64,000 bases of DNA from an uncultured Candidatus Peribacteria bacterium (GTDB lineage: Bacteria; Patescibacteriota; Gracilibacteria; UBA1369): contig CAZGSD010000001.1 in assembly GCA_964528305.1 (NCBI GenBank), positions 133,749 through 197,748 on the forward strand. Direction: 5' to 3'. The notes under the pieces are model-generated. The model did not search any database and was not told the origin of the DNA. It saw only the letters and a list, made by a program, of their open reading frames with translations. The position numbers were made by a program, and so were the translations under genes. Shown here in pieces: positions 10,278-61,983 of this stretch. The first letter of the stretch is position 1, and the number at the start of each line of letters is the position of its first letter.

Positions 10278-10292
10278 ATAACGCAAGCCGCC

Positions 10293-10373
10293 GGAGCCAG
10301 GCAGGGAGTATTACCTCGCCTCCGAAGGGCCCCTACCCCAAAGTCGGCGAGGTAATACTCCCTGCCTGGCTCC
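10293..10373. repeat. Long perfect inverted repeat (28-bp arms, 25-nt centre) immediately after yidD
   Basis: ggagccaggcagggagtattacctcgcc (10293-10320) is the exact reverse complement of ggcgaggtaatactccctgcctggctcc (10346-10373). No T-tract follows. Confidence 0.9.
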
Positions 10374-10408
10374 CGCAACCTTTATGTAAAAGGATTTTAG
10401 ATGAATAT

Positions 10409-21345: not shown

Positions 21346-22354
21346 AGCCTTGAGAAAACAAGATAGCGCCTCTTGGCAGGTGCTGTACCTCGGATCGGCT
21401 CGCGGCATGGAGGCCCAGCTGATACCAGCAAGCGGATATCAATTCCGGGCAATCAGCTGTGGAAAGCTGCGACGTTATTTTAGTCTGGAAAATTTTCTGG
21501 ATATATTTCGAATGCTGAAAGGGGTGATGCAGAGTTTGTTGATAATCTGGCGCTTTCAGCCGGATGTGATTTTTTGTAAAGGGGGATATGTTAGTTTACC
21601 GGTGGCTATTGCCGGAGGATTGCTGCGAAAACCTGTAATCATACACGAATCTGATGTGCGGATGGGACTGAGTAATAAACTAGCCGCCATAATGGCTACA
21701 CTAATTTGCGTTTCCTTCCCGGAGACTTTGCGAGTGATGGGCGGGGATAAGAGGGTTGTGTTGACGGGGAATCCGGTGAGGGCGGGGTTGGGTGATGGCA
21801 AAGCGGCGGCTGGCTGGAAGCTGACTGGATTAAAATCTGGGAAGCCAGTGATACTGGTGATGGGCGGAAGTCAGGGAGCTCAATTTATTAACGCATTGAT
21901 AGATGAAAATCTGTCTGTATTGCTGAAGCATTATCAAGTGATACATATACGTGGAAAAGGAAATCTGGCTGGGGCGCCGGCCCGGCCCGGCTATTTTGCC
22001 TGCGAATATCTGGGTGATGAATTACCCGATGTTTATGCTATTACTGACGCGATGATCAGCCGGGCCGGCGCCAATACTCTGGCGGAAATAGCCCATCTGA
22101 GTCTGCCCGCCGTGCTAATACCGCTGACCCAGGGCAGTCGAGGAGATCAGTTGGACAATGCCCGTGTTTTTGCGAAGACCCAGGCAGCTCTGGTACTGGA
22201 AGAAAACCAGATCGGAGGGCAGGATTTAGTGGATTTGCTGGCGAAGGTTAGGAAGCGGCATCATGCGGGGGTACAGGCCGCGCGGCCGGCGGCGGAATAT
22301 CTGGCTGAATTAATTTTAAAAACTGCTCAAAAATTCCATGCAAAAAAAGCTTAA
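21281..22354 (+). CDS. murG: UDP-GlcNAc:undecaprenyl-PP-MurNAc-pentapeptide GlcNAc transferase MurG
   Basis: MKIIIAGGGSGGHIIPNIAL... and GGSQGA... motifs. It overlaps the ftsW 3' end by 65 nt. Confidence 0.92.
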   Translation: MKIIIAGGGSGGHIIPNIALLEALRKQDSASWQVLYLGSARGMEAQLIPASGYQFRAISCGKLRRYFSLENFLDIFRMLKGVMQSLLIIWRFQPDVIFCKGGYVSLPVAIAGGLLRKPVIIHESDVRMGLSNKLAAIMATLICVSFPETLRVMGGDKRVVLTGNPVRAGLGDGKAAAGWKLTGLKSGKPVILVMGGSQGAQFINALIDENLSVLLKHYQVIHIRGKGNLAGAPARPGYFACEYLGDELPDVYAITDAMISRAGANTLAEIAHLSLPAVLIPLTQGSRGDQLDNARVFAKTQAALVLEENQIGGQDLVDLLAKVRKRHHAGVQAARPAAEYLAELILKTAQKFHAKKA

Positions 22355-31814: not shown

Positions 31815-34100
31815 TCACCTCGCCACCACCGCGCGCAGTTGATAGATGTCGTGCAGATTGACCACTTCTTCGCTGCGCGCGGTGGTGGCTTCGTCCTGGC
31901 GGCTGGTGGCGAGCAGCGTGAGTGCCGGCGACAGTTGGAGAGTTTTTTTGAGTTGCGTGGGGACCAGGGTTAGCTGATTTTGTGCGGTGAAGCGATATAG
32001 TGTCGCCGGCGATAGGTCGAGACGGAAAGGCAGGCGATAGCGCAAAGTGATTTGATTTTCCGTGCCGGCCGCTACCGTCATGGGGAATAGCAAAGTGGTT
32101 TTTTTAAGTTCGCTATCATGCCGCACGAGGATATCCTGGCGGGCTACGCCTTGGCTGGTTTCCAGCTCGGCTCCCAGGGGCAGGTAGACTTTTAGATAAA
32201 CTTTATTGTCCCCTCGTCCCAAAATTTGCTGCCAGCCCTCTGCCATTTCGCCAAAACCAAAACGTTTCAAAACCGAATTATACCGATGTAATTCATTTTC
32301 CGTCCAATTGTGACGCCGCTCGATAGTGAGCTCGTCATAGACTGTCCCGTCCGGCTCGATAAAGGTGTTATGGGTCAGATTTTGAGTGATATACAAATCA
32401 CTTTTATTACCTCCGATAGATGTAGCCACCACCTGCAAAAAATCCTCCTGCGGCTCCAGCGCCGATTGATGGGGCGTCAGATGATAGCGTTCAAAAAAGG
32501 CCTGAACCACTTCATCACGGGAATAAAAAATAATTTTTTGCTTACGAATAAGCCCAATGGCTGTCTGCAAAATAGCGGCCGGATTGTTGCTCTGCAGAAT
32601 TTTATCTCGGAAAGCCTCAATAGTTTTGCCCAGGATAACTTTCGGATGATCCTCACCAAAATATTTAGATTCAATCAAATACCCCAAAATCATTTGGAAG
32701 TTATTGCTGTCCAGATCGGCATGCAGCGGTGGCACGCGCAGTGGCCCCAGATCAGCTAGTATCTCCCCAATGGCGCTTTGATTAATGGCTATGACAGTAT
32801 CGACTGATGGCCCTTTGGACTTTTGCAGAAACCAGGCCGCTTTTTCAGCAGAAATGGCGAAGTCGGGAGAATAATTACTATCGCGCAACCGCCAATTATC
32901 CGTGATACGGGCTATTTCTTCGGGGGCGGCGATGTCTTCATTCAACTGACCATCGTATTGATAAACATCATGAAAATCGGCGCGGCTGACCAGCCCGTCA
33001 TTGATATCTACTATGAGCAGGGACCCGATAAAACCGCCGGTGGGACGGGCTTCCGTGTCATTTTGCAGCAGTAGCAGGTAGCGATGTGGATAGCGGTCGC
33101 CCAAAAGTTCTAGAATAGCGGGGAAATGTTCAGAAAGATCACTTAAGAAGTTGTCGATTTTATCGAGACGCTCTTTCAGTCCACCCAGCCCTTCACGATA
33201 CTGTTCCGGAAGCATGGTGATATTGACATCGGCCAATAAATTTTTGGCGGCAGCGATTTTGCCTGAAGCCTGACTGATATTGGCTAAATCCTGGCGTAGC
33301 TGATCGGTGAGCGAGGGGGTACGATTGGCTGGATCGACTTCGGGAGCCTCAGGCTGTTGTGAAACGCCCGCTGGTGGTGGATTATTGCCTATATGTACAG
33401 CTTGATTGGCCTGTAAAAATAGTGTTGGCCATTCCTGTAGACGTCCGGCTGAGGCAGTAAAAAGTTGACCGGCTTCAGCTATGTATTGACCGGCAGACAG
33501 CATGTTTTCGAGAGAACGCACATCCGCCTGTTGACTAAAAATATTGGAAGTGCGCAGAAAGGAGATTTTTTCCAGAGCCTGATTGAAATTATTTTCGGCT
33601 TCACCAAAAGCTGTCTGGGCTTGGTTGGGACTTTGCTGCGTGACCTGCTGAACACCGGCCAAAATACCATCCACCCCGCTGGAAGCACTGGAAATCAGTG
33701 TGGACTGTACTCGCAGTGAGCTGCTGAAAATCTGGCCTAGATTAATCACAAATACTACCAGCAAGCCGGCCGCTACCAATTGGGATAAATGCCAGACGTG
33801 GGAGAGGCGCGGCCTCGCGGCGCCACTGGGGGTGGGCAGTTCCGGTCGATTGATCAGATGAAAGGCTGGGGCTGGTTGGGACGCTGCGATGCTGTCCAGG
33901 CGCCGCGTGGCCGCGCGAGCCCGATGCTGCCGAGGCCCTTCAGCCTGGCCGACCTGAAAAGCCTTCAAATCCAAGATGTGATTAGATGTATTGGGAGTAT
34001 CAGCGCGCGCGGCAGCGGCACCAGTAGATGGAGTGTTTTTGAGATCAAGTTGCTCTATTTGTTTTACTTTGCTCAAGTCATTGAGCTTGTAAAGCGCCAT
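31815..34100 (-). CDS. Large membrane-anchored extracytoplasmic protein, possibly DUF4012 family
   Basis: 761 aa with an Arg/Ala-rich N-terminus and one TM (LVAAGLLVVFVINL). The internal motif ...NDTEARPTGGFIGSLLIV... is one I associate with DUF4012, from memory only. Confidence 0.5.
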   Translation of the reverse strand: MALYKLNDLSKVKQIEQLDLKNTPSTGAAAARADTPNTSNHILDLKAFQVGQAEGPRQHRARAATRRLDSIAASQPAPAFHLINRPELPTPSGAARPRLSHVWHLSQLVAAGLLVVFVINLGQIFSSSLRVQSTLISSASSGVDGILAGVQQVTQQSPNQAQTAFGEAENNFNQALEKISFLRTSNIFSQQADVRSLENMLSAGQYIAEAGQLFTASAGRLQEWPTLFLQANQAVHIGNNPPPAGVSQQPEAPEVDPANRTPSLTDQLRQDLANISQASGKIAAAKNLLADVNITMLPEQYREGLGGLKERLDKIDNFLSDLSEHFPAILELLGDRYPHRYLLLLQNDTEARPTGGFIGSLLIVDINDGLVSRADFHDVYQYDGQLNEDIAAPEEIARITDNWRLRDSNYSPDFAISAEKAAWFLQKSKGPSVDTVIAINQSAIGEILADLGPLRVPPLHADLDSNNFQMILGYLIESKYFGEDHPKVILGKTIEAFRDKILQSNNPAAILQTAIGLIRKQKIIFYSRDEVVQAFFERYHLTPHQSALEPQEDFLQVVATSIGGNKSDLYITQNLTHNTFIEPDGTVYDELTIERRHNWTENELHRYNSVLKRFGFGEMAEGWQQILGRGDNKVYLKVYLPLGAELETSQGVARQDILVRHDSELKKTTLLFPMTVAAGTENQITLRYRLPFRLDLSPATLYRFTAQNQLTLVPTQLKKTLQLSPALTLLATSRQDEATTARSEEVVNLHDIYQLRAVVAR

Positions 34101-57576: not shown

Positions 57577-59925
57577 TCACCCCAAGCGCCGCAGGGGGGC
57601 GACCGAGAGGGCTAGTTTTTTGATGCCGTGATGCAGGGAGTCGAATTTGACGGTGACCACGCCCCCCTGCGCCGCTAGTACCCAGCCCGGGCCGAATTTG
57701 TCATGCGTGACGCGATCGCCCTGTTGCAGTGGGAGATCGTCGGTGATGGAGTGGCTGTCGGATGCTGAGGTTGTTGATTGGAGGCCATGAGCTGTGCTGG
57801 TACGATTTGCAGATGTAGGAGTGGCCGCGCCGCTGGAGTGGGCTGGTATGGATGGTAAATCTCCAGAAAAATCTACCGATTCATCTGGCAAAGGTCGTAT
57901 GCCGCGCGGCGCGGCTGAGGCCATGCCACCGAAAAAGCGGCTGGATTCCCAAGAAATGTCCCTGCCCCCCACCGGCTCATCGCGATGTAAAATTTCCTCC
58001 GGTATATCCCGCAAAAATTGGGAAGCGGCATTGCTTTGTGATTCTCCATAGAGCAGCCGATTTTCTGCGTGCAGCAGATATAATTTATGTTTGGCGCGGG
58101 TAATGGCTACATACATCAGACGGCGCTCTTCTTCCAGCTCTTTTCTCTCCAGCAGGGAACGAGAATGTGGAAAAATGCCATCTTCCAGCCCCACTAAAAA
58201 AACAGTGGGGAATTCCAAACCTTTGGCGGCATGAACTGTCATGAGAGTGACGGCATTATCGCTTTCATCCAATTTATCTATGTCGGCGATCAAGGAAATT
58301 TCTTCTAAAAAAATCCCCAGAGATTCTCCGGCGGGCAGACCGTCATATTTGCCAGCCACGGAAATCAATTCATGGACATTTTGCAGACGGGACTCGCCCT
58401 CGGCCGTACCATCATCCAGCATTTTTTTGTATCCTGAAAGATCCAGAGCATGTTTGATCACACCGGAGGCCGGGAACTCCTGATTGATGGCTTGCAAATG
58501 GCTGATGAGATTTACAAATTCTTCCAGGGCTTTGGTTTTGGAATCACGCAGACTTTCGATACTGTCCATTTCTTTTAAGGCCGACCAAAAACTACAATCA
58601 TGCGTACTGGCGTACTGCTGCACGGCTTCGATGGTTTTCTGGCCGATTTTGCGGGCCGGCGTGTTGATGATACGCAGCAGGCTGATGGAGTCGTGTGGAT
58701 TTTGCACTACGCGCAAATAGGCTACCAGGTCGCGTATTTCCTTGCGTTCGTAAAATTTGATGCCGCCGATGATTTTGTAGGGAATGGCATAGCGCAAAAA
58801 AGCTTCTTCCAGCACGCGGGATTGGGCATTGGTGCGATAGAGCACCACGAAATTACGATAGTCGGCTGGCCCATCGTGGGCTTCACGATTTTCCATGGAC
58901 TGTCTGATGGTTTTGACTACAAATTCTCCCTCCTCCCGCTCATTGTGTAGAGTTTTTAGAGTAATTTTGTCCCCGCCCTCGCGCTCGGTCCAGAGTTTTT
59001 TATCACGGCGCTGAGTGTTTTTGACTATGACATGATGAGCCGCGTCCAGGATGATTTGGGTAGAGCGGTAATTCTGCTCCAGGAAGACCACCTTGGCCTC
59101 GGGATAATCTTTTTCGAAATTGAGAATATTTTGAATATTGGCACCGCGAAAAGCGTAAATGGATTGATCCGAATCCCCTATCACGCAGAGATTGCGATGG
59201 CGGGCCGCCAGCAGATTGGTGAGTATATACTGAGCGTGATTGGTGTCCTGATATTCATCGACGGAAATGTACTGAAATAAATCCTGATAATAAGCCAAGA
59301 TGTCTGGAAAATCCTGGAAAAGCTGAACTGTTTTCATAATGATATCATCGAAATCCAGGGCGTTGCTCTGCTGCAGCTGGCGCTGATAGTGACGATAACA
59401 GAGCGCCACTTTTTCAGTGAAATAATTGTTGGCGAAACGATTGTACTCTTCCGGACCGACCAATTCGTTTTTGGCGCCGGAGATGAAATTCAAAACAGCT
59501 TTGGGATTGATTTTTTTGGGGTCGATTAGTTGATCTTCCAGAATTTTTTTGATCAATAATTGCTGATCGGCGGTGTCATAAATGACAAAATTGCGATCAT
59601 AGCCCAGTTGATGAATTTGCCGGCGCAGTATGCGCACGCAGATGGAGTGAAAGGTGCCGATATTGGGCGCGAAAGTAGCGCTGTTTTCACCCAGCAGGCG
59701 TAGGACGCGCTCTTTCATTTCATTGGCGGCTTTGTTGGTGAAAGTGACGGCCAGGATGCGCCCGGGCTCGACGCCCAGATGCTTGATCTGATAGGCGATG
59801 CGGGTGGTGAGTGCGCTGGTTTTGCCAGAACCGGCGCCGGCCAATACCAATAGCGGACCAGTGGCCTGTAAAACCACTTCTTTTTGCATATCATTGAGAT
59901 TTTTCAGCATATCGGAGTCGGGCAT
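57577..59925 (-). CDS. pcrA: UvrD/PcrA-type ATP-dependent DNA helicase
   Basis: GPLLVLAGAGSGKT, VTFTNKAANEM, SVDEYQDTN and VTLMTVHAAKGLEF motifs. The start is probably ATG 59925 or 59910. The track start at 60009 runs into the repeat element. Confidence 0.92.
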   Translation of the reverse strand: MPDSDMLKNLNDMQKEVVLQATGPLLVLAGAGSGKTSALTTRIAYQIKHLGVEPGRILAVTFTNKAANEMKERVLRLLGENSATFAPNIGTFHSICVRILRRQIHQLGYDRNFVIYDTADQQLLIKKILEDQLIDPKKINPKAVLNFISGAKNELVGPEEYNRFANNYFTEKVALCYRHYQRQLQQSNALDFDDIIMKTVQLFQDFPDILAYYQDLFQYISVDEYQDTNHAQYILTNLLAARHRNLCVIGDSDQSIYAFRGANIQNILNFEKDYPEAKVVFLEQNYRSTQIILDAAHHVIVKNTQRRDKKLWTEREGGDKITLKTLHNEREEGEFVVKTIRQSMENREAHDGPADYRNFVVLYRTNAQSRVLEEAFLRYAIPYKIIGGIKFYERKEIRDLVAYLRVVQNPHDSISLLRIINTPARKIGQKTIEAVQQYASTHDCSFWSALKEMDSIESLRDSKTKALEEFVNLISHLQAINQEFPASGVIKHALDLSGYKKMLDDGTAEGESRLQNVHELISVAGKYDGLPAGESLGIFLEEISLIADIDKLDESDNAVTLMTVHAAKGLEFPTVFLVGLEDGIFPHSRSLLERKELEEERRLMYVAITRAKHKLYLLHAENRLLYGESQSNAASQFLRDIPEEILHRDEPVGGRDISWESSRFFGGMASAAPRGIRPLPDESVDFSGDLPSIPAHSSGAATPTSANRTSTAHGLQSTTSASDSHSITDDLPLQQGDRVTHDKFGPGWVLAAQGGVVTVKFDSLHHGIKKLALSVAPLRRLG

Positions 59926-60002
59926 GAGTAAAGAAAAAGAAAGATGCCCGGTTAGTATAGAAGAGCGGGGGTGGAGAAGGAAGTCTTTTTCTACACCGAA
60001 GC

Positions 60003-60147
60003 CGCCCAAACCAGGCTAGTGCTGCTCCCGGGCACGCTCGGCCGCCCCAGCGGCGGCCTCGCTATTGCTGCGGTGGGCTGCCGCTTCGCGGACCAGGCCA
60101 GCCCACCTTCGCAAATGCCCGGGAGCAGCACTAGCCTGGTTTGGGCG
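60003..60147. repeat. Structured repeat element, copy A: 32-bp near-perfect outer stem enclosing an 81-nt conserved core
   Basis: Arms 60004-60034 and 60116-60146 are exact reverse complements, and 60003 pairs with 60147. The core at 60035-60115 contains the hairpins ggccgcc/ggcggcc, ggtgggctg/cagcccacc and ccgc-ttc-gcgg. It lies between the ldt stop and the pcrA start. Confidence 0.9.
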
Positions 60148-60178
60148 CTCGCTTTTTCTAAATAAAGAACCAGCTTCC

Positions 60179-61219
60179 TCACCACACTATATCCAGTGGC
60201 GTGCCGACGTCGGCGAATTGATAGGTGAAATCAGCGTCATCTGGTAGCAATCTGATGCAGCCGTGGCTGCGGGGGCTGCCGATGTGATTCCAGGCTTCGC
60301 GCCAAAAAACGCCGCGGTCATTGGCCAGGCTGGGTAGAGCGTGTATGCCGTAGCCGCCTTTGCGGAATTGCATAAATTTGGGCATGATGTAGTGAGGGTA
60401 GGTGCCGGCCACGCGCACATCCTGTTTGAATTGAATTTTATAGCTGCCGCGTGGAGTCGGAGTGGCGCGCTTGCCGCTGGAGACGGGAAAAGTTTTGATT
60501 ATTGTTTCACCTAATTGCAAATACATTTTCTGCTCGGACAAATCTACTCGGATTTTTTTACCGCCGGCCAGTTTTGGGTCCAGCAGATTGAGACTCATCG
60601 GTAGATCTTTGCTGTAGCGGTAAATGTCACTATTGATATCGGGCTGGCCAACATTGATGTCAAAACTGAATTCGGCACTCTTATCCATCCAGGTGACGCC
60701 CTCTACCACTGGCGCTAGATATTCACGATAGATACCGGGTTCTGCCGGAGCGTGGGCTAGGAATTCAAATTCGGCTATCTCACCTGGTTCGACACGAAGA
60801 CTTTTCATTTTGATGCGACTCCCACCCAGCCACTGAGTCTGACCGAAAACCAGCGGGGCGAAAAAAGCGCTCTCACGGTCGCGACTACGGGCTGTGCCCA
60901 GATAGACGGGTGGCTGGGTGCCACAACCACTCAGGTCACTAAACCATGGGACAGTGCCGGTGTTTTTGACTGTGATATTGCCCTGAAAAAGCTGATTGGG
61001 TTCGACCTGTCCAGGCATGACGATAGACTGCAACTGACCGGAGTAGACAGGCGTGATGCCGCTGTCGACCAGACAGGATAGAGTCATACGATCGACAGTG
61101 TCCAGCACCTGAGCTTTTAAAAGAAAAGCCTGCCTGGACAGTGGCGGACAGATGGTGACAAGAGCTGTCAGGACAAGGGCGGACAGTAGTAATGGAAGAA
61201 AATATTTTTTAGTGCGCAT
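60179..61219 (-). CDS. L,D-transpeptidase (YkuD domain) with an N-terminal signal/anchor
   Basis: C-terminal ...YGIHALPS...IGSPRSHGCIRLLPDDA... is the catalytic His/Cys motif of YkuD. Confidence 0.88.
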   Translation of the reverse strand: MRTKKYFLPLLLSALVLTALVTICPPLSRQAFLLKAQVLDTVDRMTLSCLVDSGITPVYSGQLQSIVMPGQVEPNQLFQGNITVKNTGTVPWFSDLSGCGTQPPVYLGTARSRDRESAFFAPLVFGQTQWLGGSRIKMKSLRVEPGEIAEFEFLAHAPAEPGIYREYLAPVVEGVTWMDKSAEFSFDINVGQPDINSDIYRYSKDLPMSLNLLDPKLAGGKKIRVDLSEQKMYLQLGETIIKTFPVSSGKRATPTPRGSYKIQFKQDVRVAGTYPHYIMPKFMQFRKGGYGIHALPSLANDRGVFWREAWNHIGSPRSHGCIRLLPDDADFTYQFADVGTPLDIVW

Positions 61220-61286
61220 ATTTTTGTTTTTGACAAATCATGTAATTATAACATAATTTGTCTTTTAAACAAAATCCAATCTCCGA

Positions 61287-61417
61287 GAATCAGTACTGCG
61301 GCTGGCAGGCATTTGCGGAGGTGTTTTGGCCAGGTCCGCGAAGCGGCAAAACACCGTAGCAATAGTGAGGCCGCCGCTGGGGCGGCCGAGCGTGCCTGCC
61401 AGTTGCAGTACTGATTC
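61287..61417. repeat. Structured repeat element, copy B (inverted relative to copy A): 25-bp outer stem enclosing the same 81-nt core
   Basis: Arms 61287-61311 and 61393-61417 pair, with 23 Watson-Crick pairs plus two G:T pairs on the + strand. The reverse complement of the core (61312-61392) matches the copy A core at 71/81 positions by hand alignment. Confidence 0.9.
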
Positions 61418-61472: not shown

Positions 61473-61709
61473 ATGGAAACTGAGCAGATTTTGGAAATAT
61501 CAGAGCGGGGGCAGATTACTATTCCGAAAAAGATTCGGGGGCTTTTGAAAGGGCAATTTATTACCTTGAAAGTTGTGAAGGATCAGGTGATTTTGAGTCC
61601 CTTGCAAACAGTGGATAGATTTTTGGATGAATTGGATGAAAGGCATGATGACTGGAAAAAACATGGTGGGACGAGTTTGGCTGAAATAAAAGATAAATAT
61701 GAGCTCTAA
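61473..61709 (+). CDS. AbrB/MazE/SpoVT-type antitoxin
   Basis: ...LEISERGQITIPKKIRGLL... is a looped-hinge-helix motif. It overlaps the toxin gene by 11 nt. Confidence 0.7.
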   Translation: METEQILEISERGQITIPKKIRGLLKGQFITLKVVKDQVILSPLQTVDRFLDELDERHDDWKKHGGTSLAEIKDKYEL

Positions 61710-61983
61710 ACAGCAATACAAAATACAATTTTCCCGTCCTGCAGAAAAAGATTTTGCTAAATTGGATAAAGCGGTTCAGAGATTTTTGTGGAGGAAATTA
61801 GCGGCAATGGAAAAAAGAGCCGATCCCTTGAAGGGCGCGGCAAAATTAGTGAATCAGAGGGATTTGTGGCGTTGGCGTTTTGGAGATTATCGGGTGATTT
61901 TTGCTGTGGATAGAAAAGGACGAGTGGTGATATTGGTGGTACTGAGAGTGGGGCACAGGAGAGAGGTTTATGCAAAGCAATAA
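61699..61983 (+). CDS. RelE/ParE family toxin
   Basis: ...FSRPAEKDFAKLDK...LWRWRFGDYRVIFAVDRKGRVVILVVLRVGHRREVY is the typical RelE/StbE pattern. Confidence 0.8.
   Translation: MSSKQQYKIQFSRPAEKDFAKLDKAVQRFLWRKLAAMEKRADPLKGAAKLVNQRDLWRWRFGDYRVIFAVDRKGRVVILVVLRVGHRREVYAKQ

Follow-up and report, generated by a model that had tools for sequence, protein, structure and literature searches.

Inverted hairpin copies that keep their fold while their sequences diverge flank an L,D-transpeptidase gene in an uncultured Peribacteria bacterium

The window analysed here, a 64-kb stretch of the genome of an uncultured Candidatus Peribacteria bacterium (contig CAZGSD010000001.1), contains an L,D-transpeptidase gene (ldt) with a long hairpin on either side of it. 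Copy A, a 145-nucleotide (nt) hairpin read on the minus strand (60003-60147), lies between ldt and the repair helicase gene pcrA, on the ldt strand and 31 nt past the ldt stop codon, in sense orientation to both genes. Copy B, a 131-nt hairpin read on the plus strand (61287-61417), ends 55 nt before the start codon of the AbrB-like gene of an AbrB/RelE toxin-antitoxin operon. The copies are arranged inversely around ldt, 1.1 kb apart, and both are intergenic. A repeat finder returned arms at 60003-60034/60116-60147 for A (32 nt, 100% complementary) and at 61287-61311/61393-61417 for B (25 nt, 92% complementary), each pair enclosing an 81-nt core (60035-60115 and 61312-61392, respectively). The imperfections of the B stem are two G:T pairs on the plus strand and no others. 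Because the closing stem is itself palindromic, opposite orientation is a statement about the core only. The layout agrees with the original prediction, which had placed inverted hairpins with 32- and 25-bp stems and 71/81 identical cores around ldt, A in the ldt-pcrA gap and B about 55 nt upstream of AbrB/RelE, and had named the two G:T pairs as the only flaws of the B stem.

Both copies adopt the same predicted fold, consisting of the long closing stem P1 (a perfect 32 bp in A; 25 bp with two G:U in B), a tight three-way junction that leaves only two of its bases unpaired, and the arms P2 and P3. Arm P2 is composed of UUGC/GCAA, a 3x3 internal loop, a 9-bp helix, a 7-nt bulge (GCCWGGU) and a CCGC-GAA-GCGG tip, and arm P3 of 2 bp, tandem GA/GA and then GGCCGCC-GCUGG-GGCGGCC. 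Compared with dinucleotide shuffles the folds have z-scores of -12.0 (A) and -9.6 (B), and the element is GC-rich at 62-72% against 46% for the window. RNA folding energies favour the minus strand of A (-122.9 versus -116.1 kcal/mol for the opposite strand) and the plus strand of B (-87.9 versus -74.5 kcal/mol), and the motifs typical of RNA, tandem GA and a GAA-capped hairpin, are found on these favoured strands. With DNA parameters the two strands are nearly equal in stability (-73.8 versus -72.5 kcal/mol for A). The core also contains GCGAAGC, which is known as a very stable DNA mini-hairpin.

The homology between the copies was found to extend beyond the cores. Positions 60017-60133 of A (minus strand) align with 61294-61410 of B over 117 nt at 82% identity, a segment comprising the core and the inner 18 bp of the stem. 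The cores, A minus against B plus, are identical at 71 of 81 positions and differ in alignment columns 32, 38-40, 46, 63-65, 71 and 80. Within the inner 18 bp of the closing stem 13 are identical, and the five differing pairs are all compensated. The original prediction that the two stems share no sequence was therefore wrong; unrelated sequence is confined to the stem ends, the outer 14 bp in A and the outer 7 bp in B. Identity declines outward, from 88% in the core to 72% in the inner stem and to unrelated sequence in the outer stem.

Base pairing has survived this divergence completely. The 117 homologous columns hold 21 differences, 18 of them in paired columns, and not one pair is broken (45/45 kept). 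Eight pairs are altered on both sides, five in P1 and three consecutive ones in P2b, the 9-bp helix of P2, where the triple compensation GGC/GCC to TTT/AAA described in the original prediction is indeed present; two one-sided changes yield G:U pairs. Two of the three differences scored as unpaired, in columns 32 and 71, together make an A.C to G.U switch within the 3x3 internal loop, flanked by G.A and A.G. When 21 substitutions with the same numbers of transitions and transversions were placed at random 10^6 times, none of the placements kept all 45 pairs and the least damaging broke two, so the pattern of kept pairs far exceeds chance. Unpaired columns changed at 3/27 and paired columns at 18/90, a comparison of small counts that carries no significance test. 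G:U pairs are confined to the A minus and B plus strands (one in A, four in B), where the opposite strand would show A.C; together with the RNA energies this supports the strand assignment first proposed.

These results support the view that what A and B keep is secondary structure and not primary sequence. The earlier claim of selection on structure holds to this extent, with eight doubly compensated pairs and none broken, but compensation alone is no proof of selection on RNA. Thirteen of the 21 differences are transversions, and differences fall in adjacent blocks at columns 18-19, 38-40/63-65, 113-114 and 117-118. Such block transversions are atypical of RNA compensatory evolution via G:U intermediates and are as expected from templated correction of quasi-palindromes. 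Templated correction, or template switching, turns quasi-palindromes into perfect inverted repeats at the DNA level (PMC7202029). With no more than two sequences, statistics of covariation are unable to tell selection and templated repair apart.

We compared the locus with the corresponding region of five related Peregrinibacteria. The gene order NrdR, small hypothetical gene, ldt, pcrA is kept in all of them, and neither A nor B nor the AbrB/RelE operon is present; the relatives' spacers measure about 80 nt between ldt and pcrA and about 100 nt between the hypothetical gene and ldt. Identity to the relatives is 60-66% for ldt (66% for the best homologues), 73-76% for pcrA and 80-90% for NrdR. 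The ldt gene is vertically inherited, and with its syntenic position and an identity of 60-66% set against the 73-76% of pcrA it was rejected as the cargo of a composite element. Because they are absent from the syntenic sites of the five relatives, A, B and the toxin-antitoxin operon look like lineage-specific insertions, which would have entered this Peregrinibacteria lineage after the split from the known relatives. A and B are both present in a strain about 99% identical to the window (L118/L122/L125, SRR29927283). This strain has T in place of G at 60147, where the A stem ends, and differs as well at 61260, 61261 and 61264, which lie between B and the promoter of ldt; to the left of 54343, around a TrmB-like gene, it is wholly divergent from the window.

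The insertion at site A can be delimited closely. Relative to the relatives, the inserted segment spans 59994-60151 (158 nt, minus strand), that is, the hairpin and flanks of 4 and 9 nt that extend the stem imperfectly. On both sides of this segment stands a 9-nt direct repeat, CTTTTTCTA (TAGAAAAAG on the minus strand), at 59985-59993 and 60152-60160, a candidate target-site duplication. Removal of 59994-60160 leaves a spacer colinear with that of four relatives up to the conserved pcrA promoter GCTCTTCTATACT. In the window as a whole, 0.33% of positions carry such a direct repeat around a gap of that size. The absence of both copies from the relatives' syntenic sites, together with the 9-nt repeat and the clean empty-site alignment at A, undercuts the argument that the original prediction had made against a mobile element.

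Copy B lies exactly between two homology blocks. On one side the ldt promoter region resumes within 10 nt, and on the other the toxin-antitoxin promoter and operator, common to the homologous operons of two other Peregrinibacteria (L136 and L137), resume within 2 nt. Toxin homologues at 77%, 76% and 57% identity share this promoter and operator and lack the element; B is therefore not part of the toxin-antitoxin module, and we rejected that assignment. The operon itself (61473-61983) encodes an AbrB/MazE-like antitoxin and a RelE/ParE toxin, with a palindromic operator-like TACAGTATTACTGTA in its promoter, which is largely conserved as ACAGTATTAC in L136 and L137 and partly in L146.

Both copies are close to putative promoters. 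The pcrA promoter is read as TTCCTT-N17-TATACT (59954-59982, minus strand), with GCTCTTCTATACT conserved in the relatives and a -35 box that is separated by 20 nt from the edge of A and by 2 nt from the nearer copy of the repeat. The ldt promoter, read by eye as TTGTTT-N16-TATAAT (61245-61272, minus strand) and conserved with the relatives, would have its -35 box 14 nt from the edge of B. A strong promoter-like TTGACA-N16-CATAAT (61230-61257, plus strand), the mirror image of the ldt promoter region, stands 30 nt upstream of B and could drive a plus-strand transcript containing it. Each copy thus precedes a -35 box by 20 nt or less, and with respect to the operon downstream the two are oriented alike. 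The mirror site arises from the quasi-palindromic character of the ldt promoter region (61230-61275) and faces away from ldt. A relative, L139, has by eye a comparable mirror site, TTGACA-N17-CATAAT, and the two sites suggest conserved divergent transcription.

Our preferred interpretation, held tentatively and with a little less than even confidence, is that A and B are old copies, by now diverged, of an insertion element that is small, palindromic, GC-rich and non-coding, belongs to a family not yet described and has had its fold maintained. The copies share about 117 nt, and about 158 nt were inserted at site A. Insertion at site A would have left a 9-bp duplication, and each copy would have landed just upstream of a -35 box, A next to that of pcrA and B in the gap that separates the promoters of ldt and AbrB/RelE. 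The element itself may need the fold, whether to propagate through a single-stranded intermediate, for the sake of its RNA, or on both counts, while the sequence of the closing stem could drift because pairing alone would matter there. Where transcribed, the element would probably act in cis. Copy A would form the 3' end of the ldt messenger RNA (mRNA), its 32-bp perfect duplex serving as an RNase III-type cleavage site or a 3' stabiliser that uncouples ldt from pcrA, and copy B, transcribed from TTGACA-N16-CATAAT, may provide a barrier or processing site ahead of the toxin-antitoxin promoter. An insertion element explains why the locus bears the signature of an insertion, why GC is in excess, why both sites are intergenic and promoter-proximal, and why the relatives lack the copies. 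Other long hairpin insertions of similar design occur at 10290-10376 of the window and beside the homologous toxin-antitoxin operon of L136, the latter being absent in L137.

Several observations weigh against this interpretation. The outermost ends of the stems, usually the part recognised by a transposase, are unrelated between A and B. The 9-nt repeat at A, against a background of 0.3%, is suggestive and not proof, and no flanking direct repeat of 5 nt or more was found at B. A clear U-tract terminator follows neither copy, and Pfam detected no transposase, reverse transcriptase or RAYT among the window open reading frames (ORFs) scanned. Covariance models of the full element and of the core only, searched with filters off, matched only A and B in the window and a further 4.4 kb of the same genome (about 68 kb), and neither model found a copy in about 74 kb from the relatives and the toxin-antitoxin homologue loci, the five syntenic loci included. 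The original prediction had named a lack of further copies in the genome or its relatives among the observations that would refute it, and over these stretches no further copy was found. The divergent ends, the two visible copies and the mobilising agent are left unexplained by an insertion element.

Searches of larger collections were likewise negative within their reach. Plasmid and phage collections gave no blastn match to the element, and four pattern scans of viral collections returned nothing real. A genome-collection scan with GGTCCGCGAAGCGGN{20,40}GGCCGCC gave at least 117 chance matches in high-GC genomes, none of them real when checked by blastn and, for the first 100 loci, by the core model; this pattern is too loose, and the result a weak negative. 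The metagenome scan with GGTCCGCGAAGCGGN{10,16}GCAATAG gave six chance matches, none of which resembled the element outside the pattern itself; four of them fell at the 3' end of a single conserved gene. This is again a weak negative, as the strict pattern needs 21 exact bases and diverged copies would escape it. The original prediction did not recognise the core as any known RNA family; in Rfam 15 no family, ribozymes and riboswitches included, reached its gathering threshold, and with the elements alone at E ≤ 10 only chance microRNA and small-RNA matches appeared. The best Rfam match, Ms1, was rejected at 26.7 bits against a gathering threshold of 162, on the long stem only, and transfer-messenger RNA (tmRNA) was rejected on the same absence of a match at the gathering threshold. 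Signal recognition particle (SRP) RNA was also rejected; GCUGGCCUGGUCCGCGAAGCGGCAGCC resembles SRP helix 8 by eye, but the SRP models gave no support and the assignment conflicts with the helix register of the compensated pairs.

Three other explanations deserve weighing. The copies might be two paralogous genes for a structured small RNA, the main rival and a possibility that we regard as real but doubtful, in which the three-way-junction core is functional and the 25-32-bp duplex is an RNase III processing stem that frees the core from read-through transcripts and may drift in sequence while paired. The precursor stems of ribosomal RNA (rRNA) and of the Bacillus subtilis small cytoplasmic RNA, both cut by RNase III, are its analogues. 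The eight compensated pairs, the A.C to G.U switch and the one-strand G:U pairs fit this explanation, as do the outward conservation gradient, the tandem GA and GAA-capped hairpin on the favoured strand, the promoter-like site upstream of B and the sense orientation of A to ldt and pcrA. The lower rate of change in unpaired columns points the same way, with the reservation already made about its small counts. A small-RNA gene sits less easily with its absence from the relatives' syntenic sites, from about 74 kb of their sequence and from the toxin-antitoxin homologue loci, with the lack of an Rfam family even at the relaxed threshold, with an A copy that has no promoter of its own and the want of a clear terminator at either copy, and with the insertion-type duplication flanking A. 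A bolder version, which we consider improbable, would make A and B an undescribed class of structured RNA in candidate-phyla-radiation bacteria, an approximately 85-nt three-way-junction core in a sequence-free but strictly paired 25-32-bp RNase III-type excision cassette, spreading as a small insertion such that any read-through transcript yields the same RNA.

The same compensations could also have arisen without any selected function, if a single inserted DNA palindrome was copied locally in inverted orientation and its repeats were kept perfect by template switching or arm-to-arm conversion. Template switching is known to perfect quasi-palindromes (PMC7202029), and the clustered multi-nucleotide differences, 13 of 21 being transversions, would be hard to reach via G:U intermediates. 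The flawless 32-bp stem of A, the equal folding of both its DNA strands and the occurrence in the window of several other unusually long GC-rich inverted repeats, some within genes, are in line with such a process. We nevertheless think it unlikely: loops and junctions are no less conserved than stems, all four G:T positions of B lie on one strand, and the A.C to G.U switch in the 3x3 loop is left unexplained. Long perfect palindromes are usually unstable in bacteria, and persistence in two strains 99% identical suggests tolerance or benefit. Least supported, and in our estimation very improbable, is a single-stranded DNA site for recombination or replication, a folded hairpin read by an integrase, HUH nuclease or primase in the manner of attC, IS200/IS605 ends or single-strand origins. 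Structure kept more than sequence, a branched terminal structure, an equally stable DNA fold, the GCGAAGC mini-hairpin and the position of B exactly at the junction of the inserted toxin-antitoxin operon would suit it. Sites of the attC type have the consensus RYYYAAC...GTTRRRY, extrahelical bases, an unpaired central spacer, same-direction arrays and a nearby intI. Here the copies share no RYYYAAC/GTTRRRY boxes (those of A, GCCCAAAC/GTTTGGGC, are one base off the consensus and B has none), the stems have neither bulged extrahelical bases nor a central spacer, and the copies are inverted and form no same-direction array. The sole nearby tyrosine recombinase occupies a conserved syntenic position in the relatives, the window ORFs scanned include no HUH or Rep gene, and the toxin-antitoxin homologues elsewhere lack the element; attC identity was accordingly rejected.

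Other hairpins are present in the window and in relatives, and they show no similarity to A and B, so that membership of the same family was rejected for the window's long hairpins. At 10290-10376 there is a 31-bp near-perfect GC-rich hairpin with a 25-nt loop, separated by 11 nt from the YidD-like ORF that it follows and by 33 nt from the Smr-domain gene that it precedes. The motif ACCTCGCCTCC(G/T)AA(A)GG occurs both in this hairpin and in one with a 26-bp stem that lies outside the window, some 4 kb to the left of its first position (L143, 13677-13736). The two may represent a second hairpin family in this genome. Logan assemblies also break inside the 10290-10376 hairpin. Long GC-rich inverted repeats with arms of about 14-18 bp also occur in coding regions, at 57585-57676, 31822-31889, 33807-33916 and 21974-22071, the genes concerned being pcrA (at its C-terminus), a DUF4012 gene (twice) and murG. 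The pcrA repeat was rejected as an inserted element: AQGG and APLR, the peptides encoded by its arms, are antisense codon partners, and because this protein motif is conserved in relatives lacking the repeat, the repeat arises from codon choice. In L136 (2508-2619) and L137 (946-1057) the toxin-antitoxin operon is followed by a 71-nt tmRNA-like mini-gene, of the tRNA-like domain only, with an 18-bp perfect stem and a terminator; it scores 22-23 bits against the Rfam tmRNA model, below threshold, and ARAGORN found none. An inverted partial copy upstream in L136 (1692-1782), absent in L137, has an unrelated 14-bp perfect stem and a compensated change in the T-stem.

If the element is as it appears, palindromic insertions in candidate-phyla-radiation bacteria may reverse the plan of miniature inverted-repeat transposable elements (MITEs) and REPINs, with a conserved branched interior and a closing duplex that drifts but stays paired. 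Such a plan prompts one to ask what recognises the interior or makes use of it. The insertions would also put a strong double-stranded RNA signal amid a peptidoglycan cross-linking gene, a repair helicase gene and a toxin-antitoxin operon, and transcript processing in an uncultivated lineage would thereby have been rewired by insertion. If instead the copies are merely a palindrome maintained by template switching, they serve as a warning that perfect 'compensatory' patterns between two copies alone do not show selection on RNA.

Among known arrangements of paired repeats, two were rejected. A template-repeat/variable-repeat pair of a diversity-generating retroelement, which would differ only at adenines of one copy and have a reverse transcriptase nearby, does not fit, the differences between the copies involving all four bases (five at A in B, two at A in A) and the window having no reverse transcriptase. 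A retron non-coding RNA (msr-msd) has an a1/a2 closing repeat and a reverse transcriptase gene directly downstream; it would share the closing repeat, but the downstream genes here are pcrA and AbrB/RelE, again with no reverse transcriptase. As to an inverton, which is defined also by a dedicated invertase and by the occurrence of both orientations in a population, the repeats do flank ldt and its promoter and no lineage-specific invertase was seen; the same-species Logan contigs all break inside the hairpins, and junctions or an inversion are not readable there.

The insertion element that we favour works like MITEs and REPINs and is a member of neither family, because the termini are not conserved and the REPIN pattern is reversed. 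Unlike those of a MITE, the outer termini are unrelated (14 bp in A, 7 bp in B) and the inner 18 bp agree at 13 positions only. A candidate target duplication was seen at A (CTTTTTCTA, with a clean empty-site alignment) and no repeat of 5 nt or more at B, about 68 kb of genome gave two copies where a MITE would have many dispersed ones, and Pfam found no parent transposase among the window ORFs scanned. In REPINs, extragenic units that form hairpins, a change on one side of the hairpin is often compensated on the other (PMC3116915). Their near-invariant 16-mer REP ends around a variable spacer are the reverse of A and B, which in addition have no RAYT in the window and a tiny copy number. The Correia elements (NEMIS) of Neisseria resemble A and B in being about 100-155 bp long, non-coding, intergenic, often near promoters and associated with a target duplication. 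Their ends pair into a long stem-loop in the transcript, for which RNase III cleavage that modulates neighbouring mRNAs has been proposed (PMC2229807). Long stem-loops are a feature of bacterial MITE transcripts more generally (PMC2229807). Correia elements have 24-26-bp conserved termini, a TA duplication, an A+T-rich composition and hundreds of copies, whereas A and B differ at their outer ends and conserve the interior, have a 9-bp duplication, if real, a GC content of 62-72% and two known copies. Also comparable are the YPAL/RU-2 elements of Yersinia, about 168 bp long and not A+T-rich, with internal inverted repeats, target duplications of 3-26 bp and filled and empty sites (PMC2229807). 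They share with A and B insertion next to dyad symmetry and the filled and empty sites between relatives (PMC2229807), but they are multi-copy and have not been described with a branched conserved core in a perfect 25-32-bp duplex.

The overall plan of a conserved centre in a freely varying duplex has counterparts among processed RNAs. In rRNA precursors and 23S intervening sequences, RNase III processing stems form a long duplex around a conserved RNA, and pairing alone matters; A and B differ in having a core without Rfam match that is absent from relatives. The tmRNA-like mini-genes of L136 and L137 offer a further parallel, which was noticed in this analysis and is not a described family. 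Their sequences are unrelated to A and B, and their core is tRNA-like and has a terminator, but as in A and B the conserved core is closed by perfect stems of unrelated sequence (18 bp versus 14 bp), an inner helix carries a compensatory change, and an inverted pair surrounds a gene module. On the bolder small-RNA reading, which we consider improbable, these hairpin-wrapped mini-genes beside the toxin-antitoxin operon could be a second example of the same packaging.

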